The notes under the pieces were generated by a model. The model saw only the letters and a list, made by a program, of their open reading frames with translations. It was not told the DNA's origin and did no database searches. Both the position numbers and the translations under genes were made by a program. From the IMG/VR virus record IMGVR_UViG_3300031994_000033, positions 1 through 64,000 of that record: a DNA stretch of 64,000 bases; one strand, written 5' to 3'. Shown here piece by piece: positions 19,757-61,774 of the stretch. Origin of the DNA: a virus (lineage: Duplodnaviria > Caudoviricetes). The first letter of the stretch is position 1. Each line of letters begins with the position of its first letter.

Positions 19757-19786
19757 GTTTAGAAAATCATCAAAATTACCTATATT
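19757..19786 (+). promoter_or_regulatory. Early (sigma70-like) promoter
   Basis: gTTTAGA-17 nt-TATATT, with AAAATTACC before the -10; the same layout recurs at 53446 and 58874. Confidence 0.75.
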
Positions 19787-19816
19787 GTATATGTAAACTT
19801 CAAAAAGGGCCCAACT

Positions 19817-53445: not shown

Positions 53446-53475
53446 GTTTACAAACTCTGCCGAAATACCTATATT
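53446..53475 (+). promoter_or_regulatory. Early promoter
   Basis: gTTTACA-17-TATATT with AAATACC before the -10. Confidence 0.8.
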
Positions 53476-53517
53476 AACAATGTAAAACAAAGATCAACTC
53501 CAACAAGGACCAGAACT

Positions 53518-57913: not shown

Positions 57914-58807
57914 ATGGGAATCATGGAAAAGCTTTCTGATATGAGAAGAAGAGTCGATGAAGACTGGAGAGACGACGCTAGAGCCGCTAAAGCGGCGAAG
58001 TGGGTACACGATTTTCATCGCGAAAGACTAGAGAAGCTGGACTTCAGGATGGACACCAGTTTTGGTGACTTCAAAGTGGAAATAAAACCTAGCCGGAATG
58101 GCGGACTCGGGGTAAGTGTCTATCTTGGAGACGATTATCTATTCTACGAGAATTTCGAAAATGGCAAAGAGGTGAAAGAGTTTATCGAGAACGAACTGAC
58201 TGATAAGATCTATGAAAGAGTTCGAGATAAGTTAAAATATAAGATCGAGAAGATGCCGAGAGATGAGGCGAAGTCAGTATTGAAAAGATTTGACGGTCTT
58301 CTTGATGAGCTCGATAAAGAAGTCGATCTGAAGATAGACTTTGACGAACTTGATCGAAAGCTGCATCGTTACCAAGTATATTCGAATGCTCTGAATGCTA
58401 GAAATAGCAACAAGTCTGATCTAGAGTATCGTGCTAGAAGAAACTTCGAGAAGGAACACGGATTCGAAGTAGGTGACGTAGTCTATGGCACTCACAGATC
58501 AGATCTGAGAGACGGAAAGGCTTATGTCGTAACTGAAATTATGAAAAACGCTAGTGACAATCGGCACTGGAAGTACAAAGTCGAACCTGAGAACGGTCGC
58601 GGTCAGGGGGCTATAGTCTATGGATATCAGCTCTATCTTGACAGTGACGCGATAGACGCAGCCATCAACAACCCAGACGATCCGAAGTATACACCGAAGT
58701 TCGACCAGCAGCAGTACATGATTGACCGCTATAGCGCTGACCGTCAGTTCGACGAAGCAGTCGAACTTCTAAACAGCTGCGGCATGATCGTAGAATCCAG
58801 ATCGTAA
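57914..58807 (+). CDS. Hypothetical late protein with a KOW/SH3-like segment
   Basis: FEVGDVVYG..YVVTEI..YKVE; C-terminal DEAVELLNSCGMIVES. Confidence 0.65.
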   Translation: MGIMEKLSDMRRRVDEDWRDDARAAKAAKWVHDFHRERLEKLDFRMDTSFGDFKVEIKPSRNGGLGVSVYLGDDYLFYENFENGKEVKEFIENELTDKIYERVRDKLKYKIEKMPRDEAKSVLKRFDGLLDELDKEVDLKIDFDELDRKLHRYQVYSNALNARNSNKSDLEYRARRNFEKEHGFEVGDVVYGTHRSDLRDGKAYVVTEIMKNASDNRHWKYKVEPENGRGQGAIVYGYQLYLDSDAIDAAINNPDDPKYTPKFDQQQYMIDRYSADRQFDEAVELLNSCGMIVESRS

Positions 58808-58829
58808 CAGAAACTATATAAAAATCGTC

Positions 58830-58862
58830 AAAATCTCTGTAGAATTTCTACAGAGATTTTTT
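58830..58862. terminator. Bidirectional terminator-like palindrome
   Basis: AAAATCTCTGTAGAA-T-TTCTACAGAGATTTT. Confidence 0.75.
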
Positions 58863-58873
58863 CTTGTTTTAGT

Positions 58874-58903
58874 GTTTAGAATTCTCATGAAAATACCTAT
58901 ATT
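58874..58903 (+). promoter_or_regulatory. Early promoter
   Basis: gTTTAGA-17-TATATT with AAATACC before the -10. Confidence 0.8.
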
Positions 58904-58933
58904 ATAGGCGTAAACAAAACAAGGACCGTCAAT

Positions 58934-59239
58934 ATGAAGTACACGAAAGACCAAAAGACCCGCATGATCGCTAAGCTAGAATCCATGAAGAGCGGCACTA
59001 TCTTCGACCTCAACAAGAAGGACGTCTGTCCCATCAAGTGCAAGCTCGTCAAAGACCGCAACTCTCTTTCGATCCTCGCTACAGAGCTCAACGACGAAGT
59101 TCTCTTCACTGCTAATGGTCCTCATAAAAAGGTCATGGAAACTGCCGTCGACTGCATCGAAGACTACATCAATCACTGGGATCTGATGGTGAAGCAGTTC
59201 TTCATCTCTAAAGCCCGCTTGGAAGGCTACGAACCTTAA
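58934..59239 (+). CDS. Hypothetical early protein
   Basis: After the early promoter; AAGGA RBS. Confidence 0.75.
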   Translation: MKYTKDQKTRMIAKLESMKSGTIFDLNKKDVCPIKCKLVKDRNSLSILATELNDEVLFTANGPHKKVMETAVDCIEDYINHWDLMVKQFFISKARLEGYEP

Positions 59240-59300
59240 CAAATTTGTTTATTTTAACATTGTGAATTGTTAAGATCTAAAAATATCTTATATTATAGAT

Positions 59301-59371
59301 AACGGCTGGTCGTTGTTAGCTCCGGATCAGCCTGAGCGCTACCGTCCTGGTCCTTCGATAGCGCTCTTTTT
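59301..59371 (+). ncRNA. Candidate ~70-nt two-hairpin sRNA
   Basis: TATATT -10 at 59289-59294; hairpin 59304-59332; hairpin 59334-59366 followed by TTTTT; no ORF. Confidence 0.5.
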
Positions 59372-59374
59372 GTG

Positions 59375-59382
59375 TATAAATA
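59375..59382 (+). promoter_or_regulatory. Late promoter TATAAATA
   Basis: Exact consensus just before ATG 59390. Confidence 0.75.
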
Positions 59383-59389
59383 CTTTGAT

Positions 59390-61774
59390 ATGATCATTGA
59401 AGTGTTCAAAGAGAGTGTAGAGAAAGTAAGGCTGTTCGACGCTATAAATCCGGACTATGTCAATTGGATGTTCGACAGCAAGAACCGTCGAGACGGAGTC
59501 TCTGCTCCACCGTATAGAAACGAAGAGCAGGTTATGCCTGATGGATCTGAGAGATCCTTCATAAATGGGTTAGCGCCGCTTGATCACGATCTGCCTGGAA
59601 CTATCTACTTCGACACTGCAAACGGCGTTAGCCGAGTATACAGCACTCAGAAGAACATCGTCCTTGATTATGCTTCTCCTGCGTTGATGAGCTATACTGG
59701 ATCGTTCACTGGTTTCGACTCAGAAGAGAGTGAATATCAATGGACGCTCGAGCTAGTCATAAAAGACGATAGCGGAATCGATCCAGGAGCATATACTCTC
59801 CAGAAAGTCGTCGGCGAAGAGCGGACTGATCTAGTAAAGTACTCTAGAAAGAACGGAGACGCCCCGTATTGGAACAGCGAAGCTGAGATAGACAACGCTG
59901 GAATACTAGTCGAGGTGACGCAGTCTCTGGTCGACAAGAGCATGTATAGAGTCTCTGTCAGGATGGATCCGAAAAACGGCGAGCTATCTGCGCTACTGAC
60001 GAAGTGCGACGAGGATGGCTATTTCGAGTATCTTCGACTCGGCTTCACATTCTACGACCTCGCTGGAAATGCTCTGACTGGAACACTAGATAAGCCCTTC
60101 GTCAAGTACGACATATCGAGAGAAGAGCTGTTCAAAGATGTCCGTAAGCTGTCTATGTCGTTTATCGACACATATCCCTCAAATCTGTTCATCGACGAGA
60201 ACGTGATAGGCAAGACGACTATATCAGTTGCGAATCCTAACGCTTCACTGATTGAATATGGCTTCAAAATCAAGATTGGACTCAGATCTGACTCTGTCGG
60301 CTATCTATCTGGAGCAACAGACGAGGATCTAGAGAACGGAACGGCTACTCAGCTAGTTGACGGAATCGATAGAAGCGGATCAGTCATCGCTTACGCATAT
60401 CTCGATGGATCAGTCGGAAATCTCGAATGCAGCATATCGGGAGAAACTATCGCGTTTGAGCTAGACAAGAGCATCTCTGCAAAAGTCAGATCGATGACTT
60501 ATGTCGAGAAAGAGCTAGGAACTTTCATAACGGAGTGTGAAGACAATAAGCGAAAGATATATGTCGATCCATTTGTTCCTAGCGTATTGAAGAACGAGAA
60601 GATCTTCGGTCTCTGTAAGCTGTTCGAGAGATATCTCAACAGCATGTACACTCCATTGTCAGGAGACTGCCGAATAGGAATTCTGGAGAAGATCGAGAGA
60701 GTTGGAGAATTCAAGGATCCAGACTTCTGTGAGCCAGAACTTTTACCTAATTTTGCTGAAGAGCATGGATCAGAGATAACATTTAACTACCAGGACGTCA
60801 AAGAAGCAGCTGAGATTCTAGCTAAGTACGAGTCTAGCGGAATGACAGAAGACGGCAATGAGCTGACGAACAAGATCTACCGTCGTTACTACAGCATTCT
60901 GCCCTATATCGACCGCTGGAAAGGAACTATGCGCTCGATCGAGCTTCTCTATCGAGTTCTCGGAATAGACGCTAAGCTTAATCCGCTATGGGAAGGTCCT
61001 ACTGGCGACATGGTCGAAGAAGATAGAGCTGGATCTGACTACAGGCTATCCTCTCATCTGTCGTTGACTTTGAAATCTGAAAAGATCTCTACTGCTGACA
61101 TGAAGAAGCTTTCGAACTTCGCTATGAAAGCGGTCAAGTCGATACTTCCAGTCAATCGAGTGATATCTGACGTCAAAGTATATGACGATCTTGTCAGCGA
61201 TCGGAATGAGACGTTCTTGTTCACGACAACTAGCGTCATTGAGCAGAAGCCGTCTTTGATGGAGAAGATCGCCTTCGCTTGGCAGACGAAGAAGATGAAG
61301 AAGATCGTAAACGTATCTGGAGACTCTTTTGATATAGTCATTCCGATGTTCGCCGAAGAAGTCGAAGTTGGACACACTTCAGATGCTAGCATGACATTCT
61401 CGGTCCCAGACAACTGCGCATTCTATTTCACTCGTTTCGATAGAATGATCAAGGCTTATAATGGCGAGAAAGATTTGACGCTGAGCGTAGCCGGATTATC
61501 TGGCCACTGTCTAGTTCCAAAGAATGTCAATATAACATTCAAAGTGATCGGGGTTTCTCTTGGCAGAAACACGATCAAGATCAAAGCGAAGAAGACGAGA
61601 AACTATCAGTCTCTGATCACTGTCTACAACAACAATCTTGACAGCACAACTAGCTATATAGCGGCAGCATTCAAGTTCTCTAGAGCAGTCGATGACTATT
61701 GCGAGTCGATGTCGCTAGCAGACTATGACATACAAGAGTCTCTTACGACTCCGTATCAGTACGAGGAATCCTGA
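59390..61774 (+). CDS. Baseplate wedge protein with a P2 gpI/gp7-like segment
   Basis: DPDFCEPELLPNFAEEHG..RRYYSILPYIDRWKGTMRSIELLYRVLG; start revised to ATG 59390. Confidence 0.6.
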   Translation: MIIEVFKESVEKVRLFDAINPDYVNWMFDSKNRRDGVSAPPYRNEEQVMPDGSERSFINGLAPLDHDLPGTIYFDTANGVSRVYSTQKNIVLDYASPALMSYTGSFTGFDSEESEYQWTLELVIKDDSGIDPGAYTLQKVVGEERTDLVKYSRKNGDAPYWNSEAEIDNAGILVEVTQSLVDKSMYRVSVRMDPKNGELSALLTKCDEDGYFEYLRLGFTFYDLAGNALTGTLDKPFVKYDISREELFKDVRKLSMSFIDTYPSNLFIDENVIGKTTISVANPNASLIEYGFKIKIGLRSDSVGYLSGATDEDLENGTATQLVDGIDRSGSVIAYAYLDGSVGNLECSISGETIAFELDKSISAKVRSMTYVEKELGTFITECEDNKRKIYVDPFVPSVLKNEKIFGLCKLFERYLNSMYTPLSGDCRIGILEKIERVGEFKDPDFCEPELLPNFAEEHGSEITFNYQDVKEAAEILAKYESSGMTEDGNELTNKIYRRYYSILPYIDRWKGTMRSIELLYRVLGIDAKLNPLWEGPTGDMVEEDRAGSDYRLSSHLSLTLKSEKISTADMKKLSNFAMKAVKSILPVNRVISDVKVYDDLVSDRNETFLFTTTSVIEQKPSLMEKIAFAWQTKKMKKIVNVSGDSFDIVIPMFAEEVEVGHTSDASMTFSVPDNCAFYFTRFDRMIKAYNGEKDLTLSVAGLSGHCLVPKNVNITFKVIGVSLGRNTIKIKAKKTRNYQSLITVYNNNLDSTTSYIAAAFKFSRAVDDYCESMSLADYDIQESLTTPYQYEES

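Follow-up and report, generated by a model that had tools for sequence, protein, structure and literature searches.

A two-hairpin element between an early and a late gene

The window—the whole stretch of DNA analysed here—comprises the first 64 kb (positions 1 to 64,000) of a 131,626-bp viral contig (IMG/VR record IMGVR_UViG_3300031994_000033, designated G000), which is estimated to be ~52% complete. Towards the end of the window, an early gene is followed by a short two-hairpin element and then by a late gene encoding a 794-aa protein of the baseplate module. The loop of the second hairpin is complementary to a variant ribosome binding site (RBS) found behind early promoters of the same phage, and the element is considered here as a candidate small RNA (sRNA) directed at these sites. 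The features of the locus, beginning with the upstream open reading frame (ORF), are listed below.

58934-59239, + strand: upstream early ORF, 101 aa, with its stop codon at 59237-59239
59254-59273, + strand: dyad TTAACA-N8-TGTTAA, overlapping the -35 of the element's promoter
59267-59294, + strand: sigma-70-like promoter TTGTTA-16 nt-TATATT from a consensus scan, with its -10 at 59289-59294
59301-59371, + strand: predicted RNA of ~70 nt, its putative start ~7 nt past the -10 and its end formed by the T5 tract
59304-59332, + strand: hairpin 1, an 8-bp stem (59304-59311 pairs with 59325-59332) and a 13-nt loop
59334-59366, + strand: hairpin 2, the conserved core; 59334-59341 is paired to 59359-59366, with two further C-G pairs on the inside
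59345-59355, + strand: hairpin-2 loop of 11 nt, UCCUGGUCCUU, the proposed anti-RBS seed
59367-59371, + strand: T5 tract, directly after hairpin 2
59375-59382, + strand: T4-type late promoter TATAAATA, which lies 7 nt ahead of the ATG (59390) of the 794-aa gene and bounds the unit on its downstream side

The original prediction, made from the sequence alone, had described an ORF-free unit of ~70 nt behind a TATATT -10 box, built of two stems and closed by T5; a direct check and RNAfold found all of these statements to be correct. The element folds into exactly two hairpins (-27.7 kcal/mol, z = -2.4), and the GC-rich stem of hairpin 2 together with the U tract has the form of an intrinsic terminator. 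The stem of hairpin 2 comprises 8 + 2 bp in this phage compared with 11 continuous bp in relatives, and its loop is readily accessible, costing a computed 0.09 kcal/mol to open. In G000 and in G001—a complete relative of 243,336 bp with terminal repeats, which was analysed whole—this is the only terminator-like hairpin with a GGUCC-type loop, and no other hairpin with a loop resembling the anti-Shine–Dalgarno (anti-SD) sequence was convincing in either genome.

Several other identities for the element were considered. ARAGORN found no tRNA or tmRNA in the window, and no Rfam family, C4 included, matched at its gathering score or at the E-value threshold across the 64 kb (the best sub-threshold hit reached 15.7 bits against a cut-off of 89). 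No conserved ORF lies in the element, and the indels of hairpin 1 among relatives are not multiples of three. A minus-strand RNA mimicking an RBS was rejected, with both the U tract and the promoter fitting the + strand; a promoter-like site on the minus strand, at 59319-59292, faces away from hairpin 2. A role as a CsrA sponge was also rejected because the loop contains no GGA.

The phage and its relatives

Judged by its genes, the source is an uncultured T4-like phage. It encodes a set of T4-type core proteins (a gp43-like polymerase, tail sheath, sheath stabiliser, tail tube, baseplate hub, SbcCD-like nuclease, and UvsW-like helicase), and the T4 late-promoter motif TATAAATA occurs 17 times on its + strand. 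The genomes of its relatives measure ~243-264 kb. Neither blastn in distant mode with positions 58800-59500 nor tblastn with the 794-aa neighbour protein gave a match among 50,697 cultured-phage records, and the clade, as far as these comparisons tell, is one without a cultured relative in that collection.

A locus search with a single protein found nothing. The 794-aa neighbour has 62 homologues at 28-91% identity, and the region upstream was read at 16 loci drawn from ENA, JGI, Logan, and IMG/VR; two further relatives, G002 and G003, were used alongside G001 for motif counts. Direct scans yielded mostly noise: an exact 15-mer scan of IMG/VR returned 106 matches, which by a rough estimate is about chance level, and only those at L012, L038, L049, and L082 are real. 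A pattern scan of metagenomes returned 89 matches, six of them (four distinct forms) in the conserved locus context, with the hairpin match at L176 being due to chance. Likewise, L002 and L003, recovered with a hairpin-1 pattern, are chance matches inside GC-rich coding DNA.

Conservation of the second hairpin

The element is present at the same locus in L004, L005, L006, L008, L009, L012, L038, L049, L166, L248, L249, L253, L254, and L257, across which the neighbouring baseplate protein is only 39-91% identical. Hairpin 2 lies at the same place in 13 loci, representing 11 distinct sequences, among the 16 loci read. Its stem occurs as one form in three variants that differ at single pairs, and as two wholly unrelated stems, one in L008 and the other in L249 and L257. 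In the resulting alignment (A2), 98.3% of cells are paired and both sides have changed in 10 of the 11 stem pairs; none of 500 shuffles reaches the observed covariation score, and slid controls are only 28-55% paired. The loop UCCUGGUCCUU, by contrast with its covarying stem, is constant across the 11 distinct sequences, the sole exception being the second loop base, which is U in the L005 type and C in most others.

Both loop conservation and stem covariation, which the original prediction had proposed to look for in related phages, were thus found. On this comparative evidence there is selection on the folded strand and, separately, on the sequence of the loop. The fallback that the same prediction had allowed, namely that the unit is just a tandem terminator, is rejected, since an invariant loop on a covarying stem excludes it.

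Hairpin 1 is variable and less constrained. One type, with a stem starting GGCUGG or GGUUGG, is found in this phage and in L004, L009, L012, L166, and L253; in the other (L005, L006, L038, L049, and L254), three different stems surround a conserved UUGGUCAUUU loop. Several hairpin-1 loops contain anti-SD-like pentamers (CUCCU, CCACCU, UCCUU); the definition is too flexible, however, for these to be counted as evidence. L008 lacks hairpin 1 altogether. Of the two stems in the original prediction, hairpin 2 is the functional core. The U tract after hairpin 2 also varies, reading TTTTT, ATTTTTTT, or a weak ACTTTG (in L009), with none after the first hairpin (hairpin A) of L249 and L257. For L255 (31% identity) and L256 (28%), the most distant of the loci read, the 14-18 kb available contain neither the element nor the early promoter class nor any AAGGACC RBS.

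In L249 and L257, the predicted RNA starts at a canonical early promoter and presents the unchanged loop core on a different stem. It then continues into a second, terminator hairpin whose 15-nt loop contains CACCUCCUUU, which is the 3′-terminal anti-SD sequence of 16S rRNA.

L249:2440-2490: second anti-SD hairpin, after the conserved-loop hairpin
L257:7955-8005: second anti-SD hairpin, after the conserved-loop hairpin

Two loops in one predicted RNA, both of which read as anti-SD sequences, are hard to explain by chance or by protein binding. The second loop might also act on ordinary strong SDs, host ones included.

A private ribosome binding site behind early promoters

Early promoters in this phage are embedded in a repeated cassette consisting of a stem-loop, GGTTTAGA or ATTTACAA, ~15 nt, CTATATT, a G-poor leader of ~25 nt, an RBS, and ATG. 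The anatomy of stem-loop, early promoter, and leader is that of the PeSLs of T4-type phages (PMC2839356, PMC4122927). Such PeSL-like cassettes number 10-12 in G000 and ~29 in G001.

G000 cassettes, ~12 sites: 58830-58903 in the window, plus 19780, 53469, 76353, 77262, 113062, 116963, 118947, 122842, 125633, and 130205
Example cassette, + strand: stem-loop 58830-58860, promoter 58875-58903, RBS 58921, ATG 58934

About half of the cassettes carry an AAGGACC RBS and half carry RBSs of the AGGAG type, so that the early genes fall into two translational subclasses. The hairpin-2 loop, which reads CUGGUCCUU, is the exact complement of AAGGACC(AG). The AAGGA portion of this site is able to pair with the 16S anti-SD sequence, whereas the CC(AG) that follows is not. 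Since CC(AG) pairs with the loop but not with 16S rRNA, an RNA carrying the loop can compete with the ribosome specifically on these mRNAs.

The distribution of AAGGACC among gene classes is given below; genes and promoters were assigned heuristically with a crude ORF caller and regular-expression promoter classes, and the counts are to be read accordingly.

G001, AAGGACC as RBS: early-promoter-proximal 15/29, late-promoter 0/34, other 3/300 (Fisher P = 4e-16)
G000, AAGGACC as RBS: early-promoter-proximal 4/10, late-promoter 0/14, other 2/155 (Fisher P = 7e-5)

The enrichment of AAGGACC at early-promoter RBSs, on which the original prediction leaned, is thus found both genome-wide and in relatives. 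Counts of AAGGACC-N3-8-ATG exceed those of a reversed-pattern control in G001 (23 vs 2), G002 (10 vs 3), and G003 (18 vs 6), and ~20 of the 24 RBS-positioned copies in G001 directly follow an early cassette. In G000, AAGGRCC serves as the RBS behind the early promoters 19780, 53469, 58897, 77262, and 116963 and behind another promoter at 113516. The motif also extends in the direction of the loop complement: AAGGACC is followed by A in 12/15 cases and then by G in 7/15, in leaders that otherwise contain 2.4% G (P = 2e-8). Its flanks otherwise vary freely. The claim that the RNA would act on early genes as a class consequently stands in respect of the enrichment but has to be narrowed to a subclass, the motif being present in only about half of them.

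Predicted targets and pairing energetics

Three sites in the window are predicted to pair with the loop.

53505-53516, + strand: predicted target 1, the RBS of early gene 53518, matching the loop complement at 11/12 positions
58921-58927, + strand: predicted target 2, the AAGGACC RBS of the early 101-aa gene 58934, whose transcript reads into the element
19805-19811, + strand: predicted weaker target 3, an AAGGGCC RBS behind the early promoter whose -10 lies at 19780, requiring one G-U pair

A sequence scan recovered the three sites as they had originally been described (11 of 12 nt at 53505-53516, AAGGACC at 58921, and AAGGGCC at 19805), and the three early-class promoters of the window (19780, 53469, and 58897) are indeed the ones followed by these motifs. 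When the reverse complement of 59344-59355 is compared with the window, 53505-53516 is the only match with at most one mismatch. Gene 53518, with its early promoter at 53447-53475, is also the best accessibility-corrected interaction in G000 (-11.9 kcal/mol). The orthologous RBS of target 2 is kept in L004, L005, L007, L009, L253, and L257, reads AAGGACT in L006, and is lost in L254.

With opening energies included, AAGGACC leaders score -8 to -12 kcal/mol. In G001, over thresholds from -11 to -9 kcal/mol, predicted duplexes are formed by 62-69% of early translation-initiation regions (TIRs) compared with 0-3% of late and 10-21% of other TIRs; at -9 kcal/mol or better, the values for G001 (and G000) are 69% (50%) for early, 3% (7%) for late, and 21% (23%) for other TIRs. 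Of 300 loops permuted at matched composition, only 2-3 equal the count observed for the early class.

Promoter and upstream repeats of the element

The -10 context of the element's promoter resembles the early promoter class, and its position and spacing are the same in L004, L006, L009, L012, L049, L166, and L253; in L249 and L257 a canonical early-class promoter takes its place. No promoter lies between the upstream ORF and the hairpins in L005, L038, L248, and L254, and L008 is without a -10. By sequence, then, nine of 14 relatives keep a promoter dedicated to the element and five do not. The four relatives without any promoter here have instead an extra ORF of 115-122 aa that ends right at hairpin 1, and the hairpins there thus form a 3′ untranslated region (UTR). 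A separate transcription unit is accordingly plausible for most relatives but not for these four.

Two operator-like dyads had been noted around the promoter, and both are present at the positions originally given. The TTAACA/TGTTAA dyad is kept in relatives, whereas the AACAAATTTGTT palindrome recurs only in the closest one, L004. The former is one form of a TAACATTT / AAATGTTA repeat set that is conserved 5′ of the element across the clade and, chance coding matches aside, is confined to the element locus in G000 and G001. Repeats of the forms TAACATTT(TT) and AAAATGTTA(RG) are kept upstream of the element in all relatives, even in those without their own RNA promoter.

Repeat sites: window 59254-59273; L005:2420-2480; L007:2950-3015; L008:2880-2945; G001:21655-21715

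These repeats may be the operator of a DNA-binding protein or an A/U-rich RNA stem, and it is a matter of speculation that, lying around the -35, they could time the promoter of the RNA. A general middle-promoter box of the MotA type was rejected because the repeats occur only at the element locus.

A proposed trans-acting RNA directed at an early subclass

Taken together, the sequence comparisons lean, if only somewhat, towards a trans-acting anti-RBS RNA that would repress a subclass of the early genes, amounting to about half of them. The working part of this small structured RNA would be the exposed 11-nt loop of hairpin 2. In this phage, the RNA would be transcribed from its own sigma-70-like promoter and end at hairpin 2 and T5, giving a length of ~70 nt; in some relatives, the same hairpins would instead form the 3′ end of the upstream early mRNA. 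The loop is proposed to pair over 7-12 bp with AAGGACC(AG), a private SD variant at the 3′ end of the PeSL-like cassettes. The RNA would then compete with the ribosome on AAGGACC mRNAs, sparing AGGAG-type early genes and the late genes, and as it accumulated the promoter-proximal early subclass would come under translational repression. We infer that a discrete RNA is made, that pairing takes place in vivo, and that the targets are repressed, not protected or activated.

In T4, the corresponding role belongs to the proteins RegA and RegB, which the RNA would replace. A six-frame search with hidden Markov models for RegA (PF01818) and RegB (PF10715) found no homologue in G000 or in G001, which is complete; the control genomes gave no signal either, leaving the sensitivity of the search unproven. 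Under the model, genomes with many AAGGACCAG RBSs would be expected to carry the loop. In its widest form—held tentatively, and with a little more doubt than belief—the proposal is that a clade of uncultured T4-like phages of ~250 kb uses a private SD/anti-SD-like code for temporal control, in which a single RNA, presenting a mimic of the 16S anti-SD retuned by two bases, switches off the promoter-proximal AAGGACC(AG) early genes post-transcriptionally in place of RegA and RegB.

Several observations weigh against a trans-acting repressor. L007 lacks the conserved loop at this locus, the only place searched in it, and yet keeps the AAGGACC RBS, and about half of all early-promoter genes are without the motif. 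The U-variant loop of the L005/G003 type is accompanied by no clear matching shift in the RBS extensions of G003, so that no trans-covariation is seen. The AAGGACC motif could also be kept partly through its membership of a repeated PeSL-type cassette (PMC4122927). With regard to pairing, a helix of 7-9 bp inside an 11-nt loop is topologically strained, and the energy ranking is noisy, with several non-early genes also scoring well; the heuristic gene and promoter classes behind these comparisons count on the same side. Finally, metatranscriptome contigs from the runs X1 and X2, the only RNA libraries with relatives and those in small shares, cover the relatives' upstream early gene but none extends over the equivalent of 59210-59470, contigs being unable to show small RNAs.

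Competing explanations

The conserved loop could alternatively be a site of protein binding or cleavage (by an RNA-binding protein, an antiterminator, or an RNase) on a terminator or 3′-end hairpin, its complementarity to AAGGACC being coincidental or indirect. A covarying stem with an invariant loop fits a protein-recognised hairpin equally well, the position between the early region and the late operon is constant, and both L007 and the lack of trans-covariation sit comfortably with this explanation. It is nevertheless considered unlikely. The chance that an 11-nt loop would complement the early-RBS 7-mer is ~3e-4 by our own arithmetic (5 positions / 4^7), and coincidence would not predict that the RBS motif extends by A and then G as the loop does, nor that a second lineage adds a canonical anti-SD loop; in addition, no candidate protein was identified. 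Action in cis, with the loop pairing back to the AAGGACC RBS of its own early mRNA and thereby autoregulating or stabilising that operon, draws on the fact that the element lies downstream of an early cassette in every relative, usually one with an AAGGACC RBS, and that in the five relatives without their own promoter (L005, L038, L248, L254, and L008) it must belong to the upstream mRNA. Most relatives, however, keep a dedicated promoter directly before the hairpins, 15-20 other transcription units per genome carry the motif without such a 3′ hairpin, and L254 keeps the element though its upstream orthologue has lost AAGGACC; a purely cis-acting loop thus appears quite improbable.

The two remaining explanations dispense with a sequence-specific RNA. 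A plain tandem intrinsic terminator, insulating the late baseplate genes from early transcription by means of a loop without sequence-specific function, would account for the GC-rich stem followed by T5 and for the location at the early/late boundary, directly before a late promoter. It has very little to recommend it when set against a loop that remains invariant while the stem is wholly replaced in L008 and L249 and that is much longer than is usual for terminators, and against the early-RBS motif statistics given above, with the U tract being weak in L009 and missing after hairpin A of L249/L257. Equally hard to credit is an element acting as DNA, for instance as the operator of a protein, as an origin, or as a site of recombination in cassette shuffling. 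The locus-specific TAACATTT / AAATGTTA repeats do flank the element, and PeSL-type cassettes in T4-type phages are hot spots of recombination (PMC2839356). Against this, the compensatory changes in the stem indicate that a folded single strand is under selection, the orientation of both promoter and U tract suits an RNA from the + strand, and the element is single-copy.

Late promoters and accessory genes around the element

The late-promoter sequence through the ATG of the 794-aa gene is conserved in relatives. Two late promoters in the window read TATAAATA-C and lie only 7-8 nt before an ATG with no SD: one at 59375-59392, ahead of the 794-aa gene, and the other on the minus strand at 57870-57853, ahead of a divergent 84-aa gene. 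The other 18 TATAAATA sites have leaders of 20-40 nt with an SD. From their sequence, mRNAs from the two TATAAATA-C promoters would be leaderless or nearly so, and the arrangement ahead of the 794-aa gene is kept in relatives. In L248, a relative of ~248 kb, ~250 nt of non-coding DNA separate the conserved hairpin from the late promoter (L248:2245-2490), and adjacency to this promoter is therefore not essential for the element.

Small accessory ORFs (94, 122, 115, and 97 aa), which differ among relatives, are found between the early 101-aa gene and the element, a variation typical of cassette-mediated shuffling.

Accessory-ORF hot spot: L005:2137-2907; L254:7198-7908; L008:2585-2878

Significance and comparison with known systems

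If the proposal of a trans-acting anti-RBS RNA is correct, one small RNA would control 5 to 20 or so early transcription units, unlinked to one another, by way of a dedicated SD variant, which would be a new regulatory logic for virulent phages and would explain in functional terms why the 3′ end of PeSL-type cassettes is conserved. Loop and RBS would also make up an orthogonal RBS/anti-RBS pair of natural origin that might be put to use in synthetic biology.

Firmicutes possess anti-SD sRNAs with C/U-rich loops, such as the hairpins of Staphylococcus aureus RNAIII, RsaE, and Bacillus subtilis RoxS. The resemblance to the candidate RNA lies in pyrimidine-rich loop motifs that pair with the SD of several mRNAs, a terminator hairpin that carries the seed, and targets that share a motif. 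Those RNAs are host-encoded, however, and there is no sequence or Rfam relation; the seed proposed here is matched to the phage's own private SD variant on one temporal class of genes.

Among phages, the c4 antisense RNA of P1/P7, sar of P22, and OOP of lambda are small RNAs whose loops pair around an RBS and block translation, according to a 2025 review of phage sRNAs (PMC12197685). The element shares with them a phage-encoded small RNA loop proposed to pair at an RBS. The c4 RNA differs in that its target is one antirepressor operon, in a temperate phage, and in that it is processed out of the same transcript; the targets here would number ~5 units in the 131-kb part of G000 and 15-20 in the complete relative, in a T4-like phage. 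Keywords for early genes, lytic or virulent phages, and T4 had no match in that review, and its only RBS case is c4 of the temperate P1/P7. A literature search likewise found no small RNA of a T4-like phage acting on early-gene RBSs.

The unit shares with intrinsic terminators a GC-rich stem, a T run, and a position at an operon boundary, but differs in a loop that is invariant across turnover of the stem and in a U tract that is weak or missing in some relatives. To our knowledge, early-gene shut-off in T4-type phages has been described only through proteins, namely RegA, RegB, and transcriptional switches, and we know of no matched antisense RNA reported for PeSLs. The predicted targets share the PeSL layout, in which a stem-loop is followed by an early promoter, a short leader, an SD, and ATG and which recurs across the genome, whereas PeSLs have been described as shuffling and expression cassettes with ordinary SDs. 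In T4, RegB cleaves early SDs at GGAG, and RegA acts as a competitor of the ribosome (PMC3014915). The task proposed for the element is the same, being to shut off many early mRNAs post-transcriptionally by way of their TIRs; the difference is that the effectors in T4 are proteins, whereas the effector proposed here would be an RNA.

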